Source: a virus
Lineage: Duplodnaviria > Heunggongvirae > Uroviricota > Caudoviricetes
IMG/VR virus record: IMGVR_UViG_2654587571_000008
Location: 1-13,034 of that record
DNA length: 13,034 nt
Direction: 5' to 3' (one strand)
The position numbers and the translations under genes are program-made. The notes beneath the pieces were generated by a model. It made no database searches, was not told the DNA's origin, and was given only the letters and a program-made list of their open reading frames with translations. Shown piece after piece: positions 1 through 13,034 of this stretch. How positions within the stretch are numbered: position 1 is the stretch's first letter; the number at the start of each line of letters is the position of its first letter.

Positions 1-68
1 GGTGGCGGCGGCACAGTTGGTGTGGCGGCCTCAGTCCGGAACAATTTGAAAACCAGAACCTCGCTTAG
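1..68 (+). CDS. IS3-family transposase (OrfB) C-terminal fragment; 5' end outside window
   Basis: Codons 3..65 translate to WRRHSWCGGLSPEQFENQNLA followed by TAG at 66..68. From memory this matches the conserved C-terminus of IS3-type OrfB transposases. Confidence 0.7.
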   Translation, partial: WRRHSWCGGLSPEQFENQNLA

Positions 69-98
69 GCCTGTGTCCATATTACGTGGGTAGGATCA
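1..98 (+). mobile_element. Terminal ~98 bp of an IS3-family insertion sequence (right end, including transposase 3' end); body lies outside the window to the left
   Basis: Positions 4..98 are the exact reverse complement of 12940..13034. The element ends ...GGATCA at 98, matching the TGA...TCA termini typical of IS3-family elements (recalled). The transposase reading frame ends inside it. Confidence 0.75.
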
Positions 99-557
99 GA
101 GTTAGTTGTTATACTCAATCAAATCAGCACACTAACTGCTTTAAGTGAGCATCCAAAACTCGGTATCGGCGCTGTTGACATATCACTTTATAACCAGTCG
201 ATATTAACGTCTGAACATAATGGCAATGTTGCAACCATCGAGATAAAACACCATTATCCAAAGGATTTACTTTATCGGCAAGTTCAAGAAGACATCATTT
301 CCGATATTTCAAGAGTAATAGTTTCACCAACTACACACTTTATCCATATAATCCAGCAAAGAACCAAGATTAAAACTCCTTCTTTTGGTCAAGTGAAATT
401 CCTTGAACGTGATGCAAGTGATATCAGCACTTATGTGCAATGTCTTGAGGAGCTAAGTTCATTTCCCAGTAATTTTCATAAAAAAAGTGTATGTATTGAG
501 GTACTTGGTGAAATTATGTCGACATATACCTTTAACGTATATTCATTTGACAACTGA
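99..557 (+). pseudogene. 5'-truncated ORF of unknown function, cut by the IS end; AT-rich, in the bor-like position convergent with Rz1
   Basis: One frame is open from 69 to the TGA at 555..557 (162 codons) in very AT-rich DNA. The first in-frame ATG/GTG is at 393/516 with no Shine-Dalgarno, and the frame runs straight into the IS end at 98/99. Absent from the supplied ORF track because it has no start codon. Confidence 0.4.
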
Positions 558-578
558 TTAATTTGACAATTTTATTGC

Positions 579-836
579 TTAATGGTTAGTTCTCTCTGCA
601 TCTATTTTACGAATATCAGCTTTATCCCGATTGCAGTTAGCCAGCGCAGACAACAGACTCACATTCAGCTCCAGACTGGCACCATACGTCAGCGGATTAG
701 GTATAAACGGTACAGGAGTATCAGAAGTCAGGCTGGGTGGCAGTGGTGCCACCGGAACGCTCACGTAAACTGTCCGCGTACTTCCGCAACCGGTCAGCAG
801 CGGCAGCAGGCACAGCACGTGAAGCACAATCATCAT
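579..836 (-). CDS. Rz1: Rz1-like outer-membrane spanin lipoprotein (o-spanin), overlapping and extending beyond Rz
   Basis: Alternative frame inside the Rz gene. Begins MMIVLHVLCLLPLLTGC (signal peptide plus LLTGC lipobox) followed by a proline-rich region (VPVAPLPPSLTSDTPVPFIPNP). Confidence 0.55.
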   Translation of the reverse strand: MMIVLHVLCLLPLLTGCGSTRTVYVSVPVAPLPPSLTSDTPVPFIPNPLTYGASLELNVSLLSALANCNRDKADIRKIDAERTNH

Positions 837-1113
837 CCGCAACAGCCATTTTGATATCTTCCTGGGTTCTCTGTGACTCCAGTGCGATCTGCTGTTTTGC
901 ATGCTGGTTAGCCTCCAGTACTGTATTGACGATTTGCAGTGATTGCAGGACGTTATTGGTAATGGCAGTTGCCGATTTGGCATTTTGTACAGCCTCATCA
1001 GCACGTTTCTTTTCGTGCTGATATTTGCTGTAGTAGTGATTCGCTGACCAGATGAAAGAGCCAATAACAGTAAAGAAGAAAGCAGAGATAGTCAGCTTAT
1101 AACTCAACTTCAT
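721..1113 (-). CDS. Rz: Rz-like inner-membrane spanin (i-spanin)
   Basis: 130 aa with an N-terminal transmembrane anchor (LTISAFFFTVIGSFIW) and a charged, coiled-coil-like periplasmic domain. Lies immediately downstream of the endolysin and overlaps its 3' end. Confidence 0.7.
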   Translation of the reverse strand: MKLSYKLTISAFFFTVIGSFIWSANHYYSKYQHEKKRADEAVQNAKSATAITNNVLQSLQIVNTVLEANQHAKQQIALESQRTQEDIKMAVADDDCASRAVPAAAADRLRKYADSLRERSGGTTATQPDF

Positions 1114-1573
1114 TTACCACCCCACCAGCCTCTTTAAATCGGGCAATCAGGTCACCGATTTTATGTTCATACTGACCGTAACCTGCACCGGGTAATGAAG
1201 CCCATATATTGCTGCAACGGTCGATTGCCTGACGAATATCGCCGCTATCAATCATAGGTAAAGCGCCACGCTCTTTAATCTGCTGCAATGCCACTGCGTC
1301 CTGGCTTTTGGGGGAGAAGTCTTTCAAACCAAGCTGTTTACGGTAAGCATCCCACCAACGGGAAAGAAGCTGGTAACGTCCGGCGGCTGTTGATTTGAGT
1401 TTGGAGTTTAGCTTGACAAGTTTGCGAGGGTGATCGGAGTAATCAGTGAACAGTTCGCCACCAACAATAACATCATAACCGTGGTTACGTGTCGGTTGTC
1501 GCCCGTTATCCGTTCCTTCTGACCATGCCACCATATCAAGGAAAGCTTTACGCTGGGAATTTAGTACCTGCAT
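1097..1573 (-). CDS. Endolysin, lambda R-type (lytic transglycosylase, phage lysozyme family)
   Basis: 158 aa. N-terminus QRKAFLDMVAWSEGTDNGRQPTRNHGYDVIVGG and the rest match the recalled lambda R sequence almost residue for residue. Confidence 0.9.
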   Translation of the reverse strand: MQVLNSQRKAFLDMVAWSEGTDNGRQPTRNHGYDVIVGGELFTDYSDHPRKLVKLNSKLKSTAAGRYQLLSRWWDAYRKQLGLKDFSPKSQDAVALQQIKERGALPMIDSGDIRQAIDRCSNIWASLPGAGYGQYEHKIGDLIARFKEAGGVVNEVEL

Positions 1574-1576
1574 AAA

Positions 1577-1912
1577 TTACTCCTTAGAGCCACCAAACTT
1601 GTTACCGATTACTCGCATTGCAGCCCCACGAATAGCATCGACACCGATCAGCCCCACGCCACCACCAATGGCAACAGAAAGCGATTTAGGCCATCCGACA
1701 TACTCAAGAGCGGATGCAAAGGTCAGCGTCAGAGCGCCACAGAGCAAAATCTCGAGCGTTTTTCGCTTCCAGCCACCACCACCGCCAAAATAGGCGATGC
1801 GCAAACCAGCCATAACGATCGACATAATCACTGCACCCAGCGGTGTGTCTCCACGCCACCAGCTCTGAAACAACTCCAGCCAGTCCGGCCAGGTATTTGG
1901 GTTATGAGGCAT
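1577..1912 (-). CDS. Holin, lambda S-like (three predicted transmembrane segments)
   Basis: Start chosen at the internal ATG (1912..1910), preceded by GAGGTGAGAG. Three hydrophobic segments and a charged C-terminus, with AGLRIAYFGGGGG and LIGVDAIRGAAMRVI resembling lambda S. Stop is 3 nt before the endolysin start. Confidence 0.6.
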   Translation of the reverse strand: MPHNPNTWPDWLELFQSWWRGDTPLGAVIMSIVMAGLRIAYFGGGGGWKRKTLEILLCGALTLTFASALEYVGWPKSLSVAIGGGVGLIGVDAIRGAAMRVIGNKFGGSKE

Positions 1913-1955
1913 TTCGTCATCTCTCACCTCGCGATATTTGCGGGTGCTGTGTTGG

Positions 1956-1981
1956 AAATAAAAAGGCCACGCAACGTGGCC
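1956..1981 (-). terminator. Intrinsic terminator between the methyltransferase gene and the lysis cassette
   Basis: Perfect 7-bp GC-rich stem GGCCACG/CGTGGCC (1965..1971 and 1975..1981) with a 3-nt loop, followed on the minus-strand RNA by UUUUUAUUU. Confidence 0.6.
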
Positions 1982-1988
1982 ACCAGAA

Positions 1989-3044
1989 TTATTTCCCCAC
2001 CACCAGTTCACTTACCTCTTTCACCGTCTGATTAAACCGCTCTGTCTCAAGCTCAACACCTAACGCCCGACGCCCCAGCGCCATTGCTGCTTTTATTGTG
2101 GAACCGGATCCCATAAAGAAATCAGCAACCAGATCGCCGGGTCGACTACTGGCATTGATTATTTGCCTGAGCATATCCGCCGGTTTCTCACACGGATGTT
2201 TACCCGGGTAGAACTGAACGGGTTTATGCATCCAGACATCGGTATAAGGCACGGAGACTGATACGGAGAAATAGCGCCGGAGAGATTTAAACTCATCCAG
2301 CAATTCAGAATATTTGCGATTCAGTGAATCATAAGATGCCACCAACTGGTGGTGTGGTTGTTCCAGTTGTTGTTCCTGAAACTTCTCTGCCGCTATACGG
2401 GAAAACAGTGCCTGTAACTTCCGGTAGTCAGCCTCATTCGGCAACTGCCACTGACTGGCACCAAACCAGTGGGAAACCATATTTTTCTTACCTGTGGCTT
2501 CGGCAATTTGTTTTGCCGTTATACCCAGTTCGGCACGAGCATCCCTGAAATACGATATCAGCGGTGCCATTATGTGCTGTTTGAGTTCCCTTTCTTTTGC
2601 CGCATAGCCGTCACTTTTGCCGCGATATGGCCCCTGGTAATGTTCAGCAAACAGAACGCGCTCTGTGGCAGGAAAATATGCGCGCAGACTTTCTTTATTA
2701 CACCCATTCCAACGTCCGGACGGCTTCGCCCAGATGATATGGTTAAGCACGTTGAAACGTTCACGCATCATGATCTCAATATCAGATGCCAGGCGATGCC
2801 CACAGAACAGGTAAAGGCTTCCGGCAGGTTTCAACACCCGCCAGAACTGGGCCAGACAGTGGTCCAGCCACTTAAGGTAATCTTCGTCCCCTTTCCACTG
2901 ATTGTCCCAACCGTTGGGTTTCACCTTGAAGTACGGCGGATCGGTAACAATCAGGTCAATGGAATCATCAGGCAGGGACTGAATAAAATGCAGGCAATCA
3001 GCGTTGATTAAATCAACACTGTTTGTTTTTACAGTATTTTTCAT
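1989..3044 (-). CDS. DNA methyltransferase, N6/N4 family (beta-class, orphan)
   Basis: 351 aa with N-terminal motif IV (IVTDPPYF) and C-terminal motif I (DFFMGSGST). No adjacent restriction endonuclease. Confidence 0.85.
   Translation of the reverse strand: MKNTVKTNSVDLINADCLHFIQSLPDDSIDLIVTDPPYFKVKPNGWDNQWKGDEDYLKWLDHCLAQFWRVLKPAGSLYLFCGHRLASDIEIMMRERFNVLNHIIWAKPSGRWNGCNKESLRAYFPATERVLFAEHYQGPYRGKSDGYAAKERELKQHIMAPLISYFRDARAELGITAKQIAEATGKKNMVSHWFGASQWQLPNEADYRKLQALFSRIAAEKFQEQQLEQPHHQLVASYDSLNRKYSELLDEFKSLRRYFSVSVSVPYTDVWMHKPVQFYPGKHPCEKPADMLRQIINASSRPGDLVADFFMGSGSTIKAAMALGRRALGVELETERFNQTVKEVSELVVGK
3017..3036. promoter_or_regulatory. SOS-box-like palindrome (CTGT-N8-ACAG) overlapping codons 3-9 of the methyltransferase
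   Basis: cACTGTttgtttttACAGTA read directly; compare the recalled LexA consensus TACTGTATATATATACAGTA. It is the only CTGT-N8-ACAG site I found in the window. Confidence 0.3.
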
Positions 3045-3193
3045 GGATCAGTAAGCGTAACTCTGGTAGGCTCACTCTGCTTTTGCGCTAAAGCAGTGGG
3101 CCATGGTTCGCTTGTGACCAGTAAGCATGAGCGAATGGCTGGCAGGTGCTACCAACACCCACCAGCCGCCCATTTTCACAAATTAAAAGCCCT

Positions 3194-3388
3194 TCATTGC
3201 TGAAGGCGTCTGTAACAGCCGAACTGGTAATCTGCCAGCCCCGCCATAACCAGCTGGGTCAGTATTAACTGACAGCGTTCGCGTGAAAGGTATGTGTTTT
3301 GTGCAATCTCCCCGACTGTTGCCGGTTCGATGCTTAATTCATTAAAAACAACTTTCGCCGTTTCTGTCATATCTTGCTGTTTTAGCAT
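3194..3388 (-). CDS. Small (64 aa) putative winged-helix/HTH protein
   Basis: Start placed at the ATG at 3388 with AAGGGA about 8 nt upstream (the track ORF begins at 3412). ATVGEIAQNTYLSRERCQLILTQLVMAG looks like a helix-turn-helix. Confidence 0.4.
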   Translation of the reverse strand: MLKQQDMTETAKVVFNELSIEPATVGEIAQNTYLSRERCQLILTQLVMAGLADYQFGCYRRLQQ

Positions 3389-3509
3389 GTCTTTTTCCCT
3401 TCTGGTTAACATGACATACCAATAACTCTTGTCTAAAAAGCCAGCAAGATAAACAGTCAGTATTCACGACCACCAGCGTGTTTACCGTACTGCACCAATG
3501 TTTAATTTA

Positions 3510-3532
3510 TAAAAAAACCGCGAGAACGCGGT
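3510..3532 (-). terminator. Intrinsic terminator downstream of the 176-aa cargo gene
   Basis: 6-bp stem ACCGCG/CGCGGT (3517..3522 and 3527..3532) with a 4-nt loop. The plus-strand A7 run (3510..3516) gives a U7 tract after the hairpin on the minus-strand RNA. Confidence 0.6.
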
Positions 3533-3569
3533 AAGTATTGTTAAAAAACCAACAGTAATTTCACTCAAC

Positions 3570-4100
3570 TTATTTAATACATTCTTTTGCTTGCGCATAA
3601 TAAATTTTATGAGTATTAGCAAGCTTAACGAAGTTATACTTAACTGCCCCTAACAGGGTTCCAACTCTTGTATGCCCTTCCATTAAATGGAGCCCTGTTG
3701 TATTACTTTTCAGCAAAGCTCGATCTATAAAAAATGGTGGTTCGCACCATGTGCCAAAATTACACCAATGCGCTTTTATTTCATCATCCATAAATACATC
3801 ACCTTTACGGGTCATGTAATCTTCAACGACCTCATGCAAAAAATCAGGGCAAGTAGCATTATCCCCGATAGTTAAAAAGTTTTTAGTGGGAAGTTCAATC
3901 AATTTCCATTCAATTTGGTCAATATCAAGATCCCCATAAAGCTTCTGAAATCTGTCATCACCTACCAATCCATAATAAATCTCCTGAATTACAGGAGAGG
4001 GGGCAATGATAGAATATTGCTCACGAAGTATTCTTTCAGCCTCAGGAGCTTCAAATATGGTTCTTTCTGAGAAAATAGGCAGAAGATCTCGGTATAACAT
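3570..4100 (-). CDS. Hypothetical protein (176 aa), AT-rich cargo gene between Q and the lysis genes
   Basis: Long ORF in locally AT-rich DNA, with a GGGGAT Shine-Dalgarno upstream of the ATG and a strong terminator downstream. No family recognised. Confidence 0.5.
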   Translation of the reverse strand: MLYRDLLPIFSERTIFEAPEAERILREQYSIIAPSPVIQEIYYGLVGDDRFQKLYGDLDIDQIEWKLIELPTKNFLTIGDNATCPDFLHEVVEDYMTRKGDVFMDDEIKAHWCNFGTWCEPPFFIDRALLKSNTTGLHLMEGHTRVGTLLGAVKYNFVKLANTHKIYYAQAKECIK

Positions 4101-4132
4101 CCATATCCCCGTGTAAGAAAAAATAATTTAAC

Positions 4133-4152
4133 CCGCTCGGCTGCGGTTTTTT
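4133..4152. terminator. Short GC hairpin with flanking A and T tracts (candidate tR-prime, possibly bidirectional)
   Basis: CCGC tcggct GCGG followed by TTTTTT on the plus strand and preceded by an A-rich run. On the minus strand it sits about 40-55 nt downstream of the predicted late promoter. Confidence 0.35.
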
Positions 4153-4194
4153 GGACTTATCAACGGTAGACACACAAAGCCCATCGTTGAGAAA

Positions 4195-4223
4195 ATCTTA
4201 TCCATGTTTTTTGAAAAATGCAA
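4195..4223 (-). promoter_or_regulatory. Candidate late promoter (PR-prime-like) immediately downstream of the Q gene
   Basis: Minus strand reads TTGCAT, 17-nt spacer, TAAGAT (complement of 4218..4223 and 4195..4200), in the 154-bp gap between Q and the first late gene. Confidence 0.35.
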
Positions 4224-4254
4224 GCATCATGTCGCTATCTTTGTTGAAAATCAT

Positions 4255-5007
4255 TTATCTTGTCACTTTTCTCAATTGCGCTTCAGCATATGCTTCTTCC
4301 TGCCAGCACTTTGTAACCAGTTTATCAATGACGTCTGCATATCCTTTGTACCACTGATAATCCGTCAGGTCTGTTACCAGATTCTGGACATGACGTCGTG
4401 CCAGTGTGGTTGGTAAACGGCTAAATCGGTTTCCATTGCAACGCCCACAAATCTTATAAACAGGCGTGCCATGAAGCCGGGTTCTTTTTTCATCCAGGAC
4501 AATACCTTTACCCTTACATCCTCTGCACGCTGTGCTGACTTCTCCCTTACCATGACAATGCTGACATAGTTCCTTCACCCACTCTTCCTTGATAACAGAT
4601 TCCCCGTTTCTGGAGTGTTTCACCACTTCGCGCAATACATTATGAAATCCAGTACCAGCACAATGCTCACAGCGAGCCTTACTTGCCGCAGATCTGGAAT
4701 AATCAGCAAAGGCAAAATTCACAAGGTAAGGAATGATCTGTAGCCGGGTTTCTTCACTCAATTTGTTCAATGTCGGGTTATCCAGTGCCATCGCGTAATT
4801 GAGCAGACCTTCAATCGCAAACTGAGGATCCTGAACACCAACTTTTGCCAGGAATAAGGCAAAACCCAGTGGTGCTTTCGACTGCACCATCCCCTGCGCA
4901 GCCATCACATCTGTAATTGTTAAACCACCCGAGCCTGTCGCCGGTGCGTCATCACTCAATTTTGGAGATTTTGGGGAGTAATATTTTGGTAAGGCTTCAA
5001 GGTTCAT
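4255..5007 (-). CDS. Q-like late antiterminator with four CxxCxGxG zinc-finger motifs
   Basis: 250 aa with CEHCAGTG, CQHCHGKG, CRGCKGKG and CGRCNGNR. Sits directly upstream of the late promoter/terminator region. Good GGAGAA Shine-Dalgarno. Length agrees with the long Q-like proteins of E. coli prophages (recalled). Confidence 0.55.
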   Translation of the reverse strand: MNLEALPKYYSPKSPKLSDDAPATGSGGLTITDVMAAQGMVQSKAPLGFALFLAKVGVQDPQFAIEGLLNYAMALDNPTLNKLSEETRLQIIPYLVNFAFADYSRSAASKARCEHCAGTGFHNVLREVVKHSRNGESVIKEEWVKELCQHCHGKGEVSTACRGCKGKGIVLDEKRTRLHGTPVYKICGRCNGNRFSRLPTTLARRHVQNLVTDLTDYQWYKGYADVIDKLVTKCWQEEAYAEAQLRKVTR

Positions 5008-5020
5008 GCTCGTTCTCCAC

Positions 5021-6016
5021 TTACGCCAGTACGCCTATTGCCAGCGCACGATCGATAAAACGAAATATCAGCTCCAACTGGGAGCCATACATCTCTTCAA
5101 ATGCCACGGTATCCGCATGCAGCTCGTCGTGATGCTTTCTGCACAAAGGCAACACAAAGAGGTCATGCGCTTTTGTACCCATTCCCCCCTGACCGTGGCC
5201 TATCAGGTGGTGGGGATCATCAGCAAGCTTTCCACAACATGCACACGGCTGTGTCTTAACCCAGCGCGTGTACTTTTCATTAACCCAGCGGCGACGTTTT
5301 GGGCGTAACATAAAAGACTCCGGCGACTCCGGATCCACTTTCAGCGCCAGCACCTTTTTCGCTTTATCCTGGATAATGCTGGTGGCAGGAACCGAAGGCA
5401 CAAGGTCACTTTCCCGGGTGACAGACGGCACAACAGGCTTCGGTAATCTCAGTGCCTTACGGGCTGCACTTTCCGGTAAGGCATCCGCCAGGTCATTACG
5501 AATCAGCCACCAGCACAGTTCCGGCATTGTCACAACGTGACTGTCATCAAAACCGAGATCCCGACGCACAACAGACAACACCCAACGGGCACAGTTATCC
5601 GTTGCCATTGATTCCAGCCGTTCCGTGAACTGATCGCGCAGCTGGTTATCGCAGTGCCAGCAGAGACGGATTGCGCCCGGAGCGTGCCGCATTGTGGTCA
5701 TGTTCTCGCTGTGCCAGTCGGAATGAGGCCACTGGCAGCCTTTTTCACGAAGTAACCAGCTTTCAAGACATTCCACCCCACCAGCACGACGGATCACTGC
5801 CTCATTGCGGAACACGGCCCGAACGGCAGGATCATCCGCCAGCGGTTGTGATGCCGCGGGAACGGCACCACTGGCGAAAGATGAATAACGTTCCGGCTCA
5901 GGCTCCAGCAGGACACGCCCCTGCATAAACAGGGGCATCAGCTCTGAACCGGGCCTGAACAATACGATCCCCATACGCGGGGCAATTTCAGGGGTCAGTA
6001 GTGCTCTCACAGTCAC
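5021..6016 (-). CDS. DUF968-like prophage protein with a C-terminal Cys/His cluster (HNH-like)
   Basis: 331 aa. C-terminus PCACCGK...DPHH...GGMGTKAHDL...PLCRKHHDELH. Nin-region position between KilA-N and Q. Family assignment is from memory. Confidence 0.5.
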   Translation of the reverse strand: MTVRALLTPEIAPRMGIVLFRPGSELMPLFMQGRVLLEPEPERYSSFASGAVPAASQPLADDPAVRAVFRNEAVIRRAGGVECLESWLLREKGCQWPHSDWHSENMTTMRHAPGAIRLCWHCDNQLRDQFTERLESMATDNCARWVLSVVRRDLGFDDSHVVTMPELCWWLIRNDLADALPESAARKALRLPKPVVPSVTRESDLVPSVPATSIIQDKAKKVLALKVDPESPESFMLRPKRRRWVNEKYTRWVKTQPCACCGKLADDPHHLIGHGQGGMGTKAHDLFVLPLCRKHHDELHADTVAFEEMYGSQLELIFRFIDRALAIGVLA

Positions 6017-6017
6017 C

Positions 6018-6827
6018 TCAATGAACGGTATCGAGCAACTTTAACAGCTCGGGGAATCGGGATTCGAAGAAATGCGGCTGCGTCTCGCGCGGATTTGCGG
6101 GACTGGTGATGTTCTTGCCGAACATGCAGCCTTTCGCTGTCAGCGACCAGAATTTTTTGATGTTGTTAATCGCGGTACGGCTGTATCGTTCGCGCTGCTC
6201 GACGATCCCCAGCTTCACCATCTGGTGATATGCCTGATTAGCTGTCAGGCGGATACCATACTGCTTCAGCAGTGCACTCAGTGACAGCGTGGGGCGGCTT
6301 GAGCCATCAGGCGCGTCAGCAGGAGCATCAATGGCATAGCGCGGTGCCAGATTCGGTAAGCCAACAGCCTCCTGGAGTTTCTGACAGGCACCAAGCACTG
6401 AAGAGTTAGACAGGTTTAATTCCCGGCGCATAAAGTCCAGCAGAATCACACCAGCCTGCATCTTGTCAGCAGCCTGTCCGGATAATTTTTCCGGTGCGCT
6501 GGTTACCATATCGAAAGTACGGATCACCTTCAGATGGAATGACGGGCTGATCCACATTGCATAGGCATACACCAGTTCCTTGCAGACATACGTTCCCCGT
6601 TCATTTCCCCCATGAATCACACTCACCGGGTCAACACCCAAATTCTGAGTGTTGGTCAATTCATGAACAAGCTCAACAGTTTGTTGGCTGGAAAGAAACT
6701 TTCCTGGCTCCTTGGTTCTGGCATTTGCACCAGATGCTACTGCTGCGCGATGCAGATCGTTCAGACTGTAACGCCCATAAGCATCACGACGAACTTCAAT
6801 ACCATCAATGACCATCAGATTATTCAT
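6018..6827 (-). CDS. KilA-N domain protein (antirepressor-like)
   Basis: N-terminal ~100 aa (VIDGIEVRRDAYGRYSLNDLHRAA...GTYVCKELVYAYAMWISPSFHLKVIRTF) fits the KilA-N/APSES pattern. GAGGAG Shine-Dalgarno. Confidence 0.65.
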   Translation of the reverse strand: MNNLMVIDGIEVRRDAYGRYSLNDLHRAAVASGANARTKEPGKFLSSQQTVELVHELTNTQNLGVDPVSVIHGGNERGTYVCKELVYAYAMWISPSFHLKVIRTFDMVTSAPEKLSGQAADKMQAGVILLDFMRRELNLSNSSVLGACQKLQEAVGLPNLAPRYAIDAPADAPDGSSRPTLSLSALLKQYGIRLTANQAYHQMVKLGIVEQRERYSRTAINNIKKFWSLTAKGCMFGKNITSPANPRETQPHFFESRFPELLKLLDTVH

Positions 6828-6846
6828 ACTTCGTTTCTCCTCTTAA

Positions 6847-7236
6847 TCAGGCGGCTGCACCCGCCGTTTTCTCGTACTTACTTATAGTGATCTCGACCTT
6901 CCCTTCCGGGATAACCGGTCCCCACTCCACCAGCATTCTTTTCACCTGACTGTCGTCTTCCCACACACCCGCGTGGGTCAGGGCGTCAAACAGCGCCTTG
7001 TTATAGTTGTCCAGATCGCGGATCCGGTTATCCGGAGGAAACAACACGATCTCCACTGAAGCAGGTGCCGACGTTGGTTTTGGCAGACGACGTAACTGCT
7101 CAACTATTGCTGCACACGCCGCGCTCTGGAATTTGCGCCCCGCCGCGCTTATCAGGCTCTTACCTGCAAACGCCCCTTTGTTGGGGTGTCGCCAGTACGT
7201 GTTCACGCTGGGCGGAAAAGGCAGTATTAGCTTCAT
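6847..7236 (-). CDS. rusA: RusA Holliday-junction resolvase
   Basis: 129 aa. LPFPPSVNTYWRH and RDLDNYNKALFDALTHAGVWEDDSQV match the RusA signature, including the catalytic Asp cluster. Confidence 0.85.
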   Translation of the reverse strand: MKLILPFPPSVNTYWRHPNKGAFAGKSLISAAGRKFQSAACAAIVEQLRRLPKPTSAPASVEIVLFPPDNRIRDLDNYNKALFDALTHAGVWEDDSQVKRMLVEWGPVIPEGKVEITISKYEKTAGAAA

Positions 7237-7559
7237 ACTTTCAGGCCCCTCTCATGTAACCAGTGGGCTGCACGCAGCCTGGCGTTTGCCTCACCGGCAA
7301 GCAGTGCGCGGATAATCCCGACCGCCTCGCTGTCGTCGTCCTTCATCGCGGTATGAAGCGTTATCCCCCGGGCCACGCCACGCTTTATCGTGATGACGCC
7401 TTTTTTCTCCAGTGCTCGAAGATGCTCCACCGCTGCATTCACTGAACGGTATCCCAGCATGGTTGCCACCTCCTGATTGGTTGGCGGGAAGCCACGTTCT
7501 TTCTGGTAAGAAATCAGCATATCCAGCACCTGCTGCTGGCATTGAGTTAACGTCGTCAT
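7233..7559 (-). CDS. Standalone LexA N-terminal DNA-binding-domain homolog (no S24 peptidase domain)
   Basis: Residues 1-70 (LTQCQQQVLDMLISYQKERGFPPTNQEVATMLGYRSVNAAVEHLRALEKKGVITIKRGVARGITL) align with the recalled LexA N-terminus, followed by an unrelated 38-aa tail. ATGA overlaps with both neighbouring genes. Confidence 0.7.
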   Translation of the reverse strand: MTTLTQCQQQVLDMLISYQKERGFPPTNQEVATMLGYRSVNAAVEHLRALEKKGVITIKRGVARGITLHTAMKDDDSEAVGIIRALLAGEANARLRAAHWLHERGLKV

Positions 7560-8209
7560 GCAGCCATCTCCCTGACCAGTTTTTCCGCCTGCTGGCGAAC
7601 CTGCGCCAGAAAGGCCTCACCACATGCCTCAAGTTCATCGCGCCCGATGTAGCTGATTGCCGGTCCCTTCCAGGTCTTGTCGAAAACAGCAATAGCACCA
7701 GCGAAGAAAGCGCCTGTCGGCACCTGCTTCTCATCCTTCGGGATAAACCAGGCAGGCAGTTCAAAACCAATACGCCCGCGAATAAAAGCAATATGATCTG
7801 CATCTTCCGGCCACCACACTTCGCTGGTGGCAGCTTTGATCAGGAAAACATAGCGACCGCCTTTATCACGCATGGCACTGGCATGCTTCATGATGTAACG
7901 CATGCCGGTGATGTATTGCCCCTCATGCTGACTGGCGCGGCTGTATGGGGGATTACCAAAGGCAGCACCTTTAAGCTCCGCAAGACGTTCTGACCAGTCA
8001 TGTGCCAGCGCGTTGTCTTCCGCCGTGTAATACGCGGCACATTTGGCGTTATCACCGTCAGTGAACAGATCCAGAACAAACGGACCAAACAGGGTGTTAA
8101 TTCCCCAGAAAATGTTATCCGGCGTGCGCCACTGATCGCCCACTTCCTTCAGTTCATGGGCTGGTTTGTTCCGCAGCTCCACCAGCGCCCGGCAATATTT
8201 ATTACTCAT
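7556..8209 (-). CDS. Phage Dam-type N6-adenine DNA methyltransferase (orphan)
   Basis: FGNPPYS catalytic motif. Start placed at the ATG at 8209, which overlaps the upstream stop as TAATG (the track ORF extends to 8242). Confidence 0.75.
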   Translation of the reverse strand: MSNKYCRALVELRNKPAHELKEVGDQWRTPDNIFWGINTLFGPFVLDLFTDGDNAKCAAYYTAEDNALAHDWSERLAELKGAAFGNPPYSRASQHEGQYITGMRYIMKHASAMRDKGGRYVFLIKAATSEVWWPEDADHIAFIRGRIGFELPAWFIPKDEKQVPTGAFFAGAIAVFDKTWKGPAISYIGRDELEACGEAFLAQVRQQAEKLVREMAA

Positions 8210-8697
8210 TAAGCCCCCACGTAATTCCCTGACAGATACCACTCTTCACCTGATGCAGCCCGCTTGTTGCTTTTCCGTAAACACCGTTCACGACGCGCCA
8301 GAAAATTATTTCGTTCTGGCTGGGAGTGGCTTTCACGGAATGCCGCCATCCACACCGTTGCAGCACGACGGTATAAGCCCCTGGACTCCAGTTCTTCAGC
8401 CTGGCGGGTCAGGCACAAAATCACCCGGGGGTCGTTAGTGCCGACATAGAAATTGCGCACAGGTCTGGTTTCACGAACTGGTTGTGGTTCCGGCTCCTGC
8501 GCTCTCTCAGTCAGGCGCGGGAAATGTCTGCGTGTATCCCCTTCACAACGGTGAGCCACACGCCCACTCTGACGTAACTTGCTTGCTGACTGCAGAACGC
8601 GCTGCCGTGAGTAACCAGCAAAAGCATCTGCAATGTCTCCGGAAGTACACCCCGGATGAGCTTCAATGAATTTCTGAACGTCATTTAACAGACTCAT
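8209..8697 (-). CDS. Putative PerC/ANR-family-like transcriptional regulator with an N-terminal winged-helix-like region
   Basis: C-terminal ESRGLYRRAATVWMAAFRE...RRERCLRK resembles the GLWRRAA..W motif of PerC-type regulators (from memory). Start could be ATG 8697 or GTG 8703. Confidence 0.4.
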   Translation of the reverse strand: MSLLNDVQKFIEAHPGCTSGDIADAFAGYSRQRVLQSASKLRQSGRVAHRCEGDTRRHFPRLTERAQEPEPQPVRETRPVRNFYVGTNDPRVILCLTRQAEELESRGLYRRAATVWMAAFRESHSQPERNNFLARRERCLRKSNKRAASGEEWYLSGNYVGA

Positions 8698-8699
8698 GA

Positions 8700-9641
8700 T
8701 CACCCCCTGAATCCTGCCGGGATCTGGCTGTAGTCCACGTTGTCGTAACTGGATTTGAAGTACGGGTCTTCGCGTTTTTCGGTGTACGTGCTGACGGACG
8801 GCGATAAGCGCAGGGAAAGCTCATCCCATTTTTCCCGCAGCTTCGACGGGCTGAGCACGTTACGGCACCAGAACGGATCGCGGCTGACGCGGCTGTACAT
8901 CTCGCAGATTTGTTTGTGAGTACGACTATCCTGCACACACATCAGGCGAATTTCGTTTGCCCAGGCTGTCCAGTTCGGTTCTTTGGGACGAACCACCTCG
9001 CCGTCACATTCGGCGGCCTGCTCGTACAGGGCGATGATTTTTTTCCAGAGCCACTGTGCACAGGTCAAATCATCCTGCGTTCCCCACTGGCGCTTTTTAG
9101 GGCTGAATACAACCGCATCAGGATGGCGAGTTAAAAACTCCTGTTCAGCCGTCTGCGTGTCCGGTTGCGAAGCGTCCGGACGAGAAGTTTTTTTATCTGA
9201 CGGATCATGTTTTGATTTTACTGACGGATCCCCGCCAGATTCTGACGGGTGAAAACCCGCTTTTTTGCCAGATTTCGACGCATCAAATTTTGACGGGTCA
9301 GATTTTGATGCGTCAGATTTTGACGGGTCAGAATCTGACAGTTGAGAAAATGCCGCTGCCTGAAGCTTCGCAACGTTAAGCTGATAAACATTCGACGCAT
9401 TGCGGTTACCCTGGCGACGCGCCTTACGCGTTAACCAGCCTTCTGCTTCCAGCCGTGCGATAGCCGTTCTGACGGTACTCATCCCCGCGCCAATCTGACG
9501 GGCAATGGTTTCAATTGATGGCCAGCACACACCTTCGTCATTACTGAAATCAGCCAGGCGGGCCATAATTGCCACACTGGATAACTTCATGCCTGATGCA
9601 GCGCAACCATCCCATACATAGCCGGTTAATTTAGTGCTCAT
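8700..9641 (-). CDS. Replication initiator, lambda O-like organisation (N-terminal wHTH, origin iterons inside the gene)
   Basis: 313 aa. N-terminal HTH-like region (WPSIETIARQIGAGMSTVRTAIARLEAEGW). The central low-complexity DPSKSDASKSDPSKFDASKS is encoded by tandem DNA repeats. Confidence 0.65.
   Translation of the reverse strand: MSTKLTGYVWDGCAASGMKLSSVAIMARLADFSNDEGVCWPSIETIARQIGAGMSTVRTAIARLEAEGWLTRKARRQGNRNASNVYQLNVAKLQAAAFSQLSDSDPSKSDASKSDPSKFDASKSGKKAGFHPSESGGDPSVKSKHDPSDKKTSRPDASQPDTQTAEQEFLTRHPDAVVFSPKKRQWGTQDDLTCAQWLWKKIIALYEQAAECDGEVVRPKEPNWTAWANEIRLMCVQDSRTHKQICEMYSRVSRDPFWCRNVLSPSKLREKWDELSLRLSPSVSTYTEKREDPYFKSSYDNVDYSQIPAGFRG
9195..9345. repeat. Iteron array (candidate replication origin) within the initiator gene
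   Basis: Eight or more copies of a TYTGACGG-type unit, including near-perfect 15-bp tandem repeats (gattttgacgggtca / gattttgatgcgtca / gattttgacgggtca at 9301..9345), plus a nearby A/T-rich stretch. Confidence 0.55.
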
Positions 9642-9650
9642 GACCGACCT

Positions 9651-9989
9651 CTATTTCCCTGAATTTACGACGAAACTGTTCGAGCGGACTGAAGCATTCA
9701 TGCTCATAACCTTCGCGGAGGTAGATAACCCGTTGTGTTTCCGGCTCCCAACGAATGACTCTGACGGGCACTCCGTAGTGATCTTTGAACCAGCGGTTAA
9801 CTTGTCGCAAAGGACTGTCTCCTTCTGCCGGTTGAAATCACCCACAGCCCACTCTGCAAAGCTGTGGGTTACAATTTCCCTGTCACCTGGTACATTCACT
9901 GCATAGCAATATTCCACCTTCGCTTTTCCACCCGGTACAGGAAGCGCAATCAGTTGCGAGCGACGGTAGTGTGTTGTTAAACTGTTCAT
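9651..9989 (-). CDS. Hypothetical protein (112 aa) between the CII-like and initiator genes
   Basis: ATGA overlap with the upstream CII-like gene and AGAGG upstream of the following gene. No family recognised. An overlapping plus-strand ORF (9634..9906) makes the strand assignment uncertain. Confidence 0.35.
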
Positions 9990-10543
9990 GCGTTAGTTTC
10001 TCCACAACCAGAAGCAATCGACGCCACGACGCCCGGAGCTGCACACTCGCGGGCGTCATTACTTTCTGAAATGCAAAAGATTTTGTAGACCAGTGCTGCA
10101 TGCTCCTGCAGCTTCGAAATTGAGAGATACAGCTCGTCGTTAATTGCTGTCTTCTCATGCGGTTCCACTACACCGTCTTCGATTGCTGAACGAATCTGTT
10201 TTGAATAACTGCCGATCTGTTCAATGACTTCCAGCAGACGCTGGTTAATATCGGCGTTGTCCACATCCTCGACGTCAGGAAGAGACACAAATACGCCATT
10301 TGCAGACTGCGCCACAGCATCAGCAATGAAGTGAGTGCCACCAGCACGCTGTAAAACCATTGCCCATCCCAGCGGAAAAATCTGATCGCCATCTGCACGA
10401 AGGCGGTTGAATAAAGCGTTCTCTGTTACATCCAGCCAGTCAGCGGCTTCAGCGTAACCACCCGGCAACGCCGCGATAGTTTTTCTGACAGCTTTCACGT
10501 ACCACTCAGGCTGTTTTTCTATTTTCCAGTGATGCTTACCCAC
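9986..10543 (-). CDS. CII-like phage regulatory protein (185 aa)
   Basis: Start placed at GTG 10543, with AAGGAG 6 nt upstream (the track ORF begins at 10648 and would overlap cro). [16 protein letters not shown] resembles CII-type regulators (from memory). Confidence 0.45.
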
Positions 10544-10565
10544 GGCTATCTCCTTAAAACTGTGG

Positions 10566-10814
10566 TTACTTTTCATCTGATGAATCTTTAATCTTTTGAA
10601 AAATATCTGGACGTAATTTTTCTTTTGATATGCCAGTGGTCTTTTCAATGAATATCGAGAGCTTTGCAGGGGGACGCTTTTCTCTGTTCAACCAGTTCCA
10701 GACATGTTGTTGCTTTACTAAATGACCGCTGCTGGCTGTGAGCTTCCGAGCCAATTCTGATTGACCACCAGCCAGAGCGATTGCCTCCGATAAGGCTAAT
10801 TGCTCAGGTGTCAT
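10566..10814 (-). CDS. Cro-like HTH repressor
   Basis: 82 aa with an HTH (QSELARKLTASSGHL). Divergent from the cI-like gene across an operator-rich intergenic region. GGAG Shine-Dalgarno. Confidence 0.7.
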   Translation of the reverse strand: MTPEQLALSEAIALAGGQSELARKLTASSGHLVKQQHVWNWLNREKRPPAKLSIFIEKTTGISKEKLRPDIFQKIKDSSDEK

Positions 10815-10949
10815 AGCTTTCTCCTTTTTTGGTAGTTAAGTTGTTACGAGTTGCAAGAATACAACATTAACAACTTTTATCACAACTTTTAGGTGTTGGA
10901 AAGCTAAAACATAAAGTTGTAACCTCATCAAAAAAGAGAGGGATATGTT
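10815..10949. promoter_or_regulatory. Right operator/promoter region between cro-like and cI-like genes
   Basis: Contains five copies of AAGTTGT/ACAACTT (at about 10838, 10861, 10870, 10882 and 10914) and AGGTGTT. The same sequence blocks recur at 12560..12620. Confidence 0.5.
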
Positions 10950-11636
10950 GTGAAAACACTGGCAGAACGATTAAAGATAGGTAGAGAGAAAGCTGGCATG
11001 AGCCAAGCTCAACTAGCTGAAAAAATTGGACTTTCACAACAATCTGTAGCCAAAATAGAGAATGGCGAAACTCTACAACCGCGCAAAATTAAAGAAATTG
11101 CAAAAGTTTTAGGTGTATCACAAAAGTGGTTACAACTTGGTATTGAAGATAACGCATCCATACCTGATCTTGTTGTAAAAGAAGCAGAAAGCACCGCATT
11201 AGACCCCGATATTTTCGTAAACATTCCTGTTTTAGATGTCGAGTTATCGGCAGGTAACGGATGTCTGGCTGAAATAGTTGAATCAGCTATTGACTGGTTT
11301 CCGTTAAGAAGAGCAGATTTGAGAAAATCTGGCGTATGTGCATCTAATGCCAAGATCGTAAAAATATGGGGGAACAGTTTATTACCGGTTCTCAATAATG
11401 GAGATCTTGTTGCCGTTGATATTTCTCAAACCGTTCCTATTCGTGATGGCGATCTTTATGCCGTACGAGATGGTGTATTGCTAAGGGTTAAAATACTTAT
11501 CAACTTACCTGACGGTGGCTTGATTCTTAGAAGCTTCAACAAAGATGAGTACCCAGATGAAATACTCACCTTTGAAGATAGACGAGCCAGAATTCATGTT
11601 ATAGGTAGGGTATTCTGGTCATCGCGAACTTGGTAA
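10950..11636 (+). CDS. CI/LexA-type prophage repressor (HTH plus S24 peptidase, autocleavable)
   Basis: GTG start with AGAGAGGGA upstream. N-terminal HTH (MSQAQLAEKIGLSQQSVAKIENGE), an Ala-Gly cleavage site (LSAGNG), catalytic Ser (WGNSLLP) and Lys (LLRVKIL). Confidence 0.85.
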   Translation: MKTLAERLKIGREKAGMSQAQLAEKIGLSQQSVAKIENGETLQPRKIKEIAKVLGVSQKWLQLGIEDNASIPDLVVKEAESTALDPDIFVNIPVLDVELSAGNGCLAEIVESAIDWFPLRRADLRKSGVCASNAKIVKIWGNSLLPVLNNGDLVAVDISQTVPIRDGDLYAVRDGVLLRVKILINLPDGGLILRSFNKDEYPDEILTFEDRRARIHVIGRVFWSSRTW

Positions 11637-12509
11637 TGCATCGAAAAGCATTTCTTCAGAAATAATTTTAAGTTTTGCACCATTATCATCCCTATAAGAT
11701 ATAGCTTTTTCGATCTTCCTTCCGTGACTTGAGAATTTCCAATCACGGGAGGAAAGCGTCCCAATTACTAAAAAATCCAACTTTTGAGTAATTCCACTAC
11801 TGATGTTCCCACCAGCATTTTTAATCAAATTTTCAACTACGGCTCTCTTTCCTGCAACAAAAGTGCCTGTAAGACAATAGGTTTTACCCTCTAACTCTAT
11901 CGAAGCCCCTACATCAATAGGCAGCCTGGTCGCCAAACCATCCACCACCCCACTTTCCAAGTCACATCCTGTGAAGTCTACTAATGCCTTATGTAGAGTT
12001 AAACTCTCATCTTCAGTAATAACCCCATCTTTAAGAATTTCCTTTACAAGTGCATAAAGTTTTTTTCCTGGGTAGTTGTTCTTCAAAGCTCCATTTTGCT
12101 CAAGCCACCAATTAAGATATCTTATTTCTTCTTGAGTTAAGTTCCGATCAGCAATTAATCCTTTACATAGTCCATTAAGTAAATGGACATCTACATCCTT
12201 GGAGTAAAAATCAATTTCAGGGATATCAAGAATTTCCCTCTGTATTTGGAGAAGGCTATTTTTAAGGTCATCACGTTCTTCTGATGTGATTATTCCATCC
12301 GCAAGAATATCCGACACCCGTGCTGATAGACTTTTTATAACTCCATTATTGATAATCTGCTTTGCTTCAAGTAACCATGTATCTAAGTAAAGAACCTCCT
12401 CTTCACGGACAACTCCATCTGCAATGATTCCATCAATGATGCTAATCAAGTTAGCAAATAACTTGTCCCGGTTCTGTGTGTAATTAAAAGCGTAAAGCGC
12501 GTCTTCCAT
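11619..12509 (-). CDS. Uncharacterised protein with four N-terminal DG-x-I-T-x-EE repeats (TerB-like?) and a C-terminal BRCT-like domain; candidate superinfection-exclusion/defence gene
   Basis: Start placed at ATG 12509, with AGGAGG 5 nt upstream. C-terminus GKTYCLTGTFVAGKRAVVENLIKNAGGNISSGITQKLDFLVIGTL...AKLKIISEEMLFDAL follows the BRCT pattern of NAD-ligase C-termini. The 3' end overlaps the cI-like gene by 18 bp. Confidence 0.6.
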   Translation of the reverse strand: MEDALYAFNYTQNRDKLFANLISIIDGIIADGVVREEEVLYLDTWLLEAKQIINNGVIKSLSARVSDILADGIITSEERDDLKNSLLQIQREILDIPEIDFYSKDVDVHLLNGLCKGLIADRNLTQEEIRYLNWWLEQNGALKNNYPGKKLYALVKEILKDGVITEDESLTLHKALVDFTGCDLESGVVDGLATRLPIDVGASIELEGKTYCLTGTFVAGKRAVVENLIKNAGGNISSGITQKLDFLVIGTLSSRDWKFSSHGRKIEKAISYRDDNGAKLKIISEEMLFDALPSSR

Positions 12510-12559
12510 ACAACCTCCTTTTTTTGATAATCCTTGCACTCCTTGGCTACTCGTTCAAA

Positions 12560-12625
12560 CCACATAAAGTTGTTGACAACATTCAAAACCACAACTAAAT
12601 TACAACTTAAAGGTGTTAAAACAAC
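12560..12625 (+). promoter_or_regulatory. Left operator/promoter region with a PL-like rightward promoter
   Basis: Consensus -35 TTGACA (12573..12578), 17-nt spacer, -10 TAAATT (12596..12601). An imperfect dyad AAGTTGT-TG-ACAACAT (12567..12582) overlaps the -35. Operator motifs are shared with the right operator region. Confidence 0.5.
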
Positions 12626-12697
12626 GAACAGGCAGGACGCCCACGAAGTAGCCGCCTGGGGCATATGAAGTCCAGGATGATTCGTTAGCAACAAAAA

Positions 12698-12729
12698 AGC
12701 GCCCTACAGGACGCTTAGCTCTTTAACAA
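12698..12729 (+). promoter_or_regulatory. Candidate antitermination (nut-like) site: boxB-like hairpin followed by an rrn-type BoxA
   Basis: Hairpin AGCGCCC-uaca-GGACGCU (12698..12715, one mismatch), then GCTCTTTAACAA (12718..12729), identical to the recalled core of the E. coli rrn BoxA. It lies in the leader between the promoter and the first gene. Confidence 0.45.
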
Positions 12730-12774
12730 TCTGGTCCCCATCAACAAGTAACTGATAACTTGAGGAGGTGTGAA

Positions 12775-12942
12775 ATGCACAAAACAGAACCAAAAATCGT
12801 CGCACCCGGATACACAAATGAGGAAATTTACGAGTGGATGGCAAAGAAGCTGGCAGCTATAAACCAGCTTCGTGAAGTGCTGTCTTATCGACAGGAAACA
12901 ATAGACTCCTTAAAAAAACTGGATCAGGAAATCACGGTTTGA
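12775..12942 (+). CDS. Small ORF (55 codons) of unknown function, probably 3'-truncated by the IS; stop codon supplied by the IS terminus
   Basis: Strong AGGAGG Shine-Dalgarno 6 nt upstream of the ATG. The TGA at 12940..12942 is the first three bases of the IS end. Confidence 0.45.
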   Translation: MHKTEPKIVAPGYTNEEIYEWMAKKLAAINQLREVLSYRQETIDSLKKLDQEITV

Positions 12943-13034
12943 TCCTACCCACGTAATATGGACACAGGCCTAAGCGAGGTTCTGGTTTTCAAATTGTTCC
13001 GGACTGAGGCCGCCACACCAACTGTGCCGCCGCC
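12940..13034 (-). mobile_element. Terminal 95 bp of a second, inverted IS3-family copy; body lies outside the window to the right
   Basis: Exact reverse complement of 4..98. The window ends inside the element. Confidence 0.75.
12970..13034 (-). CDS. IS3-family transposase (OrfB) C-terminal fragment; 5' end outside window
   Basis: Mirror image of 1..68, with the stop codon TAG at 12972..12970 on the minus strand. Confidence 0.7.
   Translation of the reverse strand, partial: RRHSWCGGLSPEQFENQNLA

Follow-up and report, generated by a model that had tools for sequence, protein, structure and literature searches.

We analysed a stretch of 13,034 nucleotides (nt) of Caudoviricetes DNA (IMG/VR virus record IMGVR_UViG_2654587571_000008, positions 1 to 13,034; hereafter the window) and focused on an open reading frame (ORF) of 176 codons at positions 3570-4100 of the minus strand. 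The window covers the early-right and late regions of a lambdoid Escherichia coli prophage, and nearly every gene is on the minus strand. Before the antiterminator gene Q lie cI, cro, an O-like gene, a Dam-like methylase gene, RusA, KilA-N and DUF968 genes. Q is followed by the ORF, a gene for a winged helix-turn-helix (wHTH) protein of 72 amino acids (aa), an N6/N4 methylase gene, and the holin, lysozyme and Rz genes. The ORF starts with ATG and encodes a protein of 176 aa (20.5 kDa, pI 5.1). As described below, it forms an exchangeable cassette at the head of the late transcript, and its product is predicted to be a small member of the ParB/sulfiredoxin (ParB/Srx) superfamily.

The ORF is a real gene because it is intact in 90 of 90 carrier genomes, its alleles differ with a pN/pS (ratio of nonsynonymous to synonymous polymorphism) of 0.39, its orthologues keep the same motifs, and its product gives a model with a predicted local distance difference test (pLDDT) score of 94. 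The carriers were found among 5,426 complete E. coli genomes, each with a single full-length copy. They share two alleles of about 96% mutual identity, between which the pN/pS value was determined. The commoner one is of the IHE3034 type, and extraintestinal and avian pathogenic E. coli strains (ExPEC/APEC), such as IHE3034, APEC O18 and PMV-1, are among the carriers. In the complete genome of E. coli PS1Thumoskin9, the stretch from Q through the wHTH gene is 100% identical to the window, and the ORF is labelled as a hypothetical protein. Orthologues in other Enterobacterales are 47-58% identical to the E. coli protein and retain long invariant motifs.

The original prediction had described the ORF as AT-rich, with its own Shine-Dalgarno (SD) sequence and a strong terminator, and this description is borne out. 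Its GC content is 0.369 (0.288 at third codon positions), compared with 0.477 for the whole window and 0.461, 0.457 and 0.485 for Q, the wHTH gene and the methylase gene (range of the neighbours, 0.46-0.55). An SD box, GGGGA, can be read directly from the minus strand at 4110-4106, 5 nt upstream of the ATG, and an AGGA or GGGGA box occupies the same position in the orthologues. Downstream, a strong intrinsic terminator at 3510-3532 of the minus strand (a GC-rich hairpin of 6 bp, ACCGCG-TTCT-CGCGGT, followed by seven T; -9.7 kcal/mol, z = -4.1 against shuffles) closes the cassette. A frame that is open by chance, or a decaying and non-functional gene, might be suspected from the rarity of the family and its missing curated annotation. 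This suspicion is effectively refuted by the conservation data: the 90 intact copies, the pN/pS value, the conserved SD box, motifs kept across phyla (282 representatives) and a confident fold prediction all contradict it.

The ORF is an exchangeable cargo cassette of the slot between Q and the lysis genes, as had been proposed. Q (4255-5007, minus strand; PF03589, 1.6e-53) belongs to the lambda-Q family and is the upstream anchor of the slot, outside the cassette; a lambda-family holin gene follows at 1577-2011. A three-way alignment of the window with Ayreon and an Stx2k phage shows backbones that hardly differ as far as GCGGGTT and then again from TTGGTGCAGTAC (window position 3498). Between these homology breaks, Ayreon carries a gene for a lipoprotein-like protein of 141 aa and the window prophage carries the ORF. 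The breaks relative to Ayreon-type phages define an AT-rich, swappable cassette of about 630 bp (3499-4129, minus strand; GC 0.36). The 141-aa gene occupies the same slot in Ayreon, mEp460, Stx2c and Stx2k phages and 215 E. coli genomes. While its product is lipoprotein-like, the 176-aa protein has neither a signal peptide nor a lipobox and is cytoplasmic; hence, a secreted or lipoprotein product was rejected. In Ayreon, the slot spans 2916-3633 (equivalent to 3499-4148 of the window), and the 141-aa gene belongs to PHROG 4748, a family of unknown function. Near-identical terminator hairpins, AACCCGCCACTGAGCGGGTTTTTT, lie on both sides of the 141-aa gene cassette and may be recombination points for cassette exchange.

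That the protein could not be placed in any family, as first stated, holds for the curated libraries: Pfam, NCBIfam and PADLOC v2 gave no match (PADLOC none at E ≤ 1). It does not hold for structure, as a structure-based search leads to the ParB/Srx superfamily. PHROG 8867, whose function is unknown, matches the protein end to end (7.5e-90). A word-indexed search of 5.8 billion proteins returned only 14 clusters, all of them enterobacterial, and the phage collection held a single relative, in a Salmonella prophage. By an exhaustive HMMER profile search, 282 representatives (at 50% identity) were found at E ≤ 1e-3, 136 of them at or below 1e-10. The members are mostly 165-185 aa long and are spread over Proteobacteria, Actinomycetota, Planctomycetota, Bacillota and Bacteroidota. 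They share the signature W..x..TW..PP(I/V/F)x(I/L)...(L)HL(V/M)EGHTRxGxLxG...H..W.G. In an alignment of 124 members, W112, W118 and R145 are invariant, and conservation reaches at least 90% at P34, Y55, W65, T117, P122, E141, G142, L149 and H164. Even at permissive thresholds, no member of this alignment matched a relevant Pfam or NCBIfam model. A sequence search of the PDB with two profiles of the family and a literature search for the RefSeq accession of the protein returned nothing. Weak leads to CUE (7 members matched) and DUF1281 (4 members), with a best E of 0.0012, were dropped, and the DUF1281 literature was uninformative. The family is an uncatalogued, divergent branch of a known superfamily, outside every curated family.

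A model built from the 124-sequence alignment reached a pLDDT of 94.1 and a predicted template modelling score of 0.89, a confidence that depended on the depth of the alignment. It shows a ParB/Srx-like alpha/beta core at about residues 60-172 (3585-3923, minus strand), in the order strand, helices, strand, strand, helix and strand. The core is preceded by a family-specific extension of four helices at residues 1-58 (3927-4100, minus strand), as seen from the secondary structure of the model, for which there was no significant structural match. Foldseek searches of the BFVD viral models returned weak matches only (E of at least 4e-3), mostly to ParB/Srx, DndB and GmrSD-N proteins.

The core holds a GxxR motif of the phosphate-binding (Box II) type, G142-H143-T144-R145, preceded by E141 (3666-3677, minus strand). 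R145 is invariant, and E141 and G142 belong to the residues conserved in at least 90% of the 124 members. The stretch from E141 to R145 lies at a strand-helix junction, and its counterparts are GERRxR in ParB, GGCHR in sulfiredoxin and GNHR in ToxB. The distance from the PP pair to the Arg of the motif is 23 residues, equal to that in human sulfiredoxin, whose sequence was checked against the PDB. The protein ends about 30 residues past the motif and contains no HTH, dimerisation or nuclease domain, which gives it an architecture of sulfiredoxin size.

The protein shares with the superfamily the core fold and the GxxR motif with its conserved Arg, and sequence profiles of the superfamily (PF02195 or related Pfam models) do not detect the family. 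Since the sequence-level comparisons were not significant, the assignment rests on fold and motif. On this basis, we regard the ParB/Srx (ParB-CTPase) fold of the modelled protein as very probable. In tested ParB-fold proteins (PMC12704722), and likewise in the GNHR motif of ToxB, the GxxR Arg is essential to nucleotide binding. Binding of a nucleoside triphosphate (NTP) by the 176-aa protein is predicted as well, and we consider it rather probable. The nucleotide would be held by the E141-G-H-T-R145 pocket, near the conserved aromatic residues W65, W112 and W118, and could then serve the protein as a switch or as a substrate.

The position of the gene in the transcription map bears on when such a protein would be made. 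The 155-nt interval from Q to the ORF can be aligned with the pR' region of lambda, including a -10-like pause element, CTCAACGATGGG, with identical spacing. The late promoter pR' and its pause element lie at 4183-4223 of the minus strand, with a -35 hexamer TTGCAT (4223-4218), a spacer of 17 nt, a -10 hexamer TAAGAT (4200-4195) and the pause sequence AACGAT (4188-4183). In an alignment to the real lambda sequence, lambda reads TTGACT...TAAATT-TGACTC-AACGATGGG where the window reads TTGCAT...TAAGAT-TTTCTC-AACGATGGG, at equal spacing. We take the aligned lambda elements to be the pR' promoter and pause signal established in the lambda literature. The pR' and pause elements are identical in Ayreon, the Stx2k phage and IHE3034. 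The Q protein of the window is a homologue of lambda Q (35% identity, E = 2e-41; the window Q contains a 48-aa insertion). Therefore, from this homology and the pR' alignment, the ORF is placed as the first gene of the late transcript.

Between pR' and the ORF lies a remnant of the terminator tR' (4118-4148, minus strand). It consists of a hairpin, AACCGC-AGCCGA-GCGGGTT, at 4148-4130 and an interrupted U-tract, TTAAATTATTTTTT. The tR' sequence is GCGGGTTAAATTATTTTTT in the window and GCGGGTTTTTTT in Ayreon, where a terminator is annotated at the hairpin and its T7 tract. In the window, the cassette junction falls within the U-tract, with GCGGGTT on the upstream side and AAATTATTTTTT on the other. 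The window allele also has two altered stem bases in the hairpin, and its folding energy is -6.8 kcal/mol (z = -0.5 against shuffles), compared with -14.1 kcal/mol (z = -3.4) for Ayreon. The IHE3034 allele retains the stem, and its U-tract is broken as in the window. In Ayreon, the Stx2k phage, Klebsiella, Citrobacter and Enterobacter, the homologous hairpin is directly followed by T5-7. A hairpin of the form AACCCGC-loop-GCGGGTT occurs just upstream of the ORF across genera and with both Q families (PF03589 and PF06323). It is located at 4130-4148 in the window, at 3951-3972 and 3949-3970 in loci L041 and L045, and at 4958-4975 in an Enterobacter prophage (L007); the Salmonella prophage has a degenerate form of it, and Hafnia lacks it.

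No promoter-like site for the ORF was found on the minus strand of the locus, and the gap of 25-30 nt between tR' and the start codon has no room for one. In Klebsiella, Citrobacter and Enterobacter, the orthologue follows an intact tR' hairpin and U-tract after about 25-30 nt and an SD box, and a second terminator closes the unit. From the intact tR' ahead of the gene in these three genera, we conclude that, as far as sequence can tell, it would normally be a Q-dependent late gene, placed between terminators and lacking a promoter of its own. Because the U-tract of tR' is broken at the E. coli cassette junction, Q-independent transcripts may read through to the terminator at 3532-3510. We think it possible, if somewhat doubtful, that the E. 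coli cassette is in this way also read from the constitutive pR' in lysogens, at a leaky level.

Leaky transcription matters for one alternative, in which the gene is expressed from the prophage, protects the lysogen and, like Osa, blocks incoming phage or plasmid DNA on its own. An AT-rich cargo in a variable slot would suit a defence or exclusion gene. The U-tract of tR' is broken in both E. coli alleles, so that constitutive pR' transcripts could reach the ORF, and distant relatives lie beside BREX, type I and MmeI-like restriction, Lamassu, retron and GmrSD genes. However, the ORF has no detectable promoter of its own, no PADLOC model matches its product, and Osa is no nearer to the protein than other members of the superfamily. 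Behind the intact tR' of Klebsiella, Citrobacter and Enterobacter, moreover, the gene should be silent in lysogens. We consider protection of the lysogen unlikely. Of the toxin or defence cargo that had been suggested at the outset, the swappable cargo stands, whereas expression in the lysogen is weakened by the same three observations on promoter, terminator and PADLOC.

The gene directly downstream encodes the wHTH protein (PHROG 331; 3194-3412, minus strand; called at 3194-3388 by RefSeq in the 100%-identical genome). The wHTH gene lies outside the cassette and is a backbone gene. It had been suggested to form a two-gene unit with the ORF, and this is not supported. Of the 5,426 E. coli genomes, 1,592 contain the wHTH gene, compared with 90 that contain the ORF. 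Many phages, among them SfV, Ayreon, mEp460, Stx2c and Stx2k phages, have the wHTH gene and no ORF, and neither a wHTH gene nor a methylase gene adjoins the orthologues of four further genera, Enterobacter, Salmonella, Klebsiella and Citrobacter. The wHTH gene and the ORF do not co-occur consistently. E. coli carriers invariably show the order Q, ORF and wHTH gene; a wHTH gene followed by an N6/N4 methylase gene after the ORF is limited to E. coli and Hafnia. What is constant is the position directly after Q, which the ORF or its orthologue holds in six genera (E. coli, Hafnia, Enterobacter, Salmonella, Klebsiella and Citrobacter). In all but E. coli, Q belongs to PF06323 instead of PF03589, and the downstream lysis genes differ too.

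The same occurrence data bear on the proposal that the protein is an NTP-dependent DNA-modification helper of the late N6/N4 methylase (1989-3044, minus strand; PF01555, 3.5e-42) or of other methylases, either as a counterpart of DndB or DpdB or as one half of a split ParB-methyltransferase fusion of the kind common in phages. The ORF, the wHTH gene and the methylase gene lie in one transcription unit in E. coli and Hafnia, and among the distant relatives, one directly adjoins an MmeI-like methylase-nuclease and another hsdM. Methyltransferases of the N6N4 and S-adenosylmethionine types occur fused to the ParB fold, and such fusions bind ATP (PMC12704722); DpdB and DndB are ParB-like partners of DNA-modification systems. 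Against this, phages including Ayreon, mEp460 and SfV have the wHTH and methylase genes and no ORF, the cassette is swapped for the lipoprotein-like gene while the methylase is retained, and the unequal counts in E. coli and the four genera without an adjoining methylase speak the same way. We rate a dedicated helper role as quite improbable; the methylase is possibly a functional neighbour, and a non-obligatory one.

Outside the Enterobacterales prophages, the distant relatives are solitary genes in variable regions, on plasmids, in islands and beside defence genes. The Halomonas relative is downstream of BREX (bacteriophage exclusion) pglZ-brxL. Another one abuts an MmeI-like enzyme, with a helicase gene and a T5orf172 gene after it, and a third is located between umuC and hsdMSR, just upstream of hsdM-hsdS-hsdR. 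Further relatives are found in a phage-like contig with an Abi_C gene, among transposases and MobA, beside SNF2 helicases, between recombinases on a Bacillus megaplasmid, and within 6-14 kb of the replicon ends of Streptomyces linear plasmids. Twelve further genomes, whose loci came from a search with a 25-sequence subset under a strict search pattern, contributed 88 neighbours. These include integrases, transposases, a type I restriction enzyme, a retron, LmuB and a GmrSD-like protein, and also ordinary metabolic genes.

No conserved neighbour or partner gene was found among the distant relatives, whose neighbours are mutually unrelated. A toxin-antitoxin or toxin-immunity pair was rejected on these grounds, and so was the pairing with the wHTH gene. 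Such a distribution agrees with an accessory gene of mobile elements and defence islands that works on its own.

Two of these contexts are described here in their own right. At the MmeI-like locus (L013, 3340-10893), the order is the MmeI-like methylase-nuclease, the family member, a 426-aa coiled-coil/membrane protein, a DEAD helicase and the T5orf172 protein. These five genes form an apparent operon, and start and stop codons abut or overlap between the first three of them. The operon may represent an uncharacterised defence system of several genes, the family among them. In Streptomyces NZ_CP129127.1 (locus L037), the family match is at 6400-6834 of 152,701, and locus L038 and other linear plasmids are similar. 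There, the relatives are embedded in co-directional small genes of unknown function (DUF6879, DUF6875, DUF6042, GNAT, AAA ATPase), near a terminal DEAD-box helicase.

Taken as a whole, we favour the reading that the gene encodes a Q-dependent, stand-alone, NTP-binding ParB/Srx module that takes part in conflict between mobile elements and their host, and we hold this composite to be evenly balanced. The part that concerns conflict, taken for itself, we place slightly on the doubtful side. Mechanistically, the protein would act alone in the late phase, as an accessory factor in the conflict of the phage with host defences or rival mobile DNA. It would belong neither to the virion nor to the lysis machinery, and it would not be a classical lysogenic-conversion toxin. 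In published work, the ParB-CTPase fold serves as a versatile module for NTP binding, and orphan proteins with this fold are enriched on plasmids and prophages and bind ATP, CTP or GTP (PMC12704722). A ParB-like protein, HerB, reprograms hosts (PMC13370423).

Several observations weigh against this reading. At the sequence level, none of the 124 members matched PF02195 or another Pfam family of the ParB clan, even at E ≤ 10, and hhalign gave nothing significant against human sulfiredoxin. Against a ParB_N profile of 16 sequences, it returned a non-significant E of 0.048 (probability 1%), with PPxxI...LxLVEGHTRxG paired to NPVLIDE..IIAGHGRV; this profile is of low diversity, as the retrieved homologues were all at least 63% identical. 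Against a single ParB_N protein and against human sulfiredoxin, the expected motif was aligned, again without significance. Catalysis is uncertain, given that the protein lacks ParB Box III (ENLxR) and that H143 and T144 are not constant in the family. With a pI of 5.1 (family median 6.0), the protein is mildly acidic, and a DNA-binding domain is missing. In a PNAS survey (PMC12704722), no NTP binding was seen in vitro for 17 of the 28 ParB-fold proteins that were purified. With respect to conflict, no PADLOC model matches the protein, and a terminator-insulated gene behind pR' fits lysogen protection poorly. The defence-gene neighbourhoods are a qualitative observation that covers about one third of the loci and has no background control.

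One variant of a role in conflict is counter-defence. From the onset of the late phase, the protein would neutralise a late-triggered host system or shield progeny DNA in the next host, perhaps by binding or consuming nucleotides. The family is carried by prophages, plasmids and transposon-rich islands. Its genes are small, solitary and fast-varying between lineages, and they are first in the late transcript in six genera; the conserved aromatic residues lie in the predicted nucleotide pocket. However, several relatives sit in chromosomal islands without obvious mobile-element genes, and anti-restriction and nucleotide-sponge genes are typically expressed early. A DNA mimic was rejected, as a protein of pI 5.1 is not strongly acidic. 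We judge counter-defence in this form to be hardly likely.

A ToxB-like ATPase toxin or host shut-off effector, damaging the cell once made, is another reading. ToxB is a toxic ATPase with a minimal ParB fold, a GNHR motif and no DNA-binding domain, and expression of the ORF is coupled to the lytic late phase. Yet no adjoining immunity-like gene is conserved in any context, the protein is not part of CdiA or polymorphic toxin proteins, and a cell could hardly tolerate a potent toxin behind the leaky tR' of E. coli. We regard a toxin as very unlikely.

Some features of the prophage lie apart from these questions. The 48-aa insertion of the window Q contains extra CxxC..GxG pairs and a sub-threshold match to DnaJ_CXXCXGXG (PF00684; 3.2e-7, 31.0 against a cutoff of 32.7 bits), which suggests a second zinc finger. 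Besides the N6/N4 methylase in the late operon (PF01555, 1989-3044), the prophage has an early, Dam-like DNA methyltransferase (PF05869, 7556-8242). A 306-aa gene at 11619-12539 (minus strand; GC about 0.37-0.42) is convergent with cI and overlaps its 3' end. Its product has a C-terminal BRCT domain (PF00533, 1.4e-6), belongs to PHROG 3989 (function unknown) and weakly matches PADLOC PDC-S48 (2.7e-7). It looks like immunity-region cargo and a better candidate for expression in the lysogen than the ORF. In the 100%-identical genome, a transposase gene of the IS3 insertion sequence family (1807-2969 there) lies beyond the Rz end and reaches the first ~70 bases of the window (1-70); the late region of the prophage may be interrupted by it at the window start. 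The Enterobacter prophage with an orthologue (L007) encodes, at 8003-9647, just before the terminase, a ParB_N protein (PF02195) followed by a TAGT-family gene (PF20691), a pair that resembles the DNA-modification pair of DpdB/DpdA type.

The ParB-CTPase fold has been reused beyond chromosome segregation, in ATP, CTP and GTP switches, a toxin and a host reprogrammer, and surveys of it start from PF02195. A family that is missed by PF02195 and by every curated library tested therefore marks a branch of the fold that is still unexplored. Always holding the place of first Q-dependent gene in prophages of six enterobacterial genera, it offers a tractable E. coli system to learn what use a bare ParB/Srx module is to a phage, and its recurrence beside restriction and BREX genes strengthens the case for study. 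A single-protein, NTP-driven conflict module on this fold, acting as an anti-phage or anti-plasmid effector or, as the first late gene of a lambdoid phage, in counter-defence, would be a branch beyond the PF02195-based surveys; we consider this far-reaching form of the proposal rather unlikely. The finding would be ordinary if the protein is an accessory factor with a subtle phenotype.

Among known systems, sulfiredoxin is a peroxiredoxin-repair enzyme of eukaryotes and cyanobacteria and not phage cargo. It has its catalytic Cys in GGCHR, whereas the family has H143 at the equivalent position, which varies to R, Q, N or L. Sulfiredoxin also lacks the N-terminal extension of four helices and shows no significant sequence similarity.

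PadC and other ParB_N (PF02195) proteins differ from the family, which lacks an HTH and Box III as well as a ParA or bactofilin partner, and of which PF02195 detects no member. The features of a canonical ParB/CTPase clamp (Box III, HTH, C-terminal dimerisation domain and ParA partner) are missing, and there is no parA near the locus.

ToxB is similar as a bare ParB fold without a DNA-binding domain, with GNHR in place of GHTR, and its aromatic residues stack on the purine. It differs in being the C-terminal warhead of CdiA, after the VENN motif, and in having an immunity gene, whereas the 176-aa protein stands alone and no downstream gene is conserved.

Phage ParB-methyltransferase fusions, DndB and DpdB are likewise NTP-binding modules of the ParB fold that accompany DNA-modification enzymes on mobile elements, and an N6/N4 methylase gene is the second gene downstream of the ORF. 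In contrast to these systems, the ORF and the methylase are separate genes, and their co-occurrence is facultative.

As a genetic unit, the cassette resembles lambdoid morons and Q-to-S cargo (stx, bor-type), which are AT-rich insertions between terminators in a variable slot, with alternative cassettes at the same junctions. Unlike bor and lom, the ORF depends on pR', and no promoter was found for it.

Osa, the fertility-inhibition factor of IncW plasmids, is a ParB/Srx ATPase-DNase of about 190 aa. Like Osa, the protein encoded by the ORF is a solitary ParB/Srx protein of about 180-190 aa that is encoded by a mobile element and has no fixed partner, and Osa acts in the conflict between mobile elements (PMC13370423).

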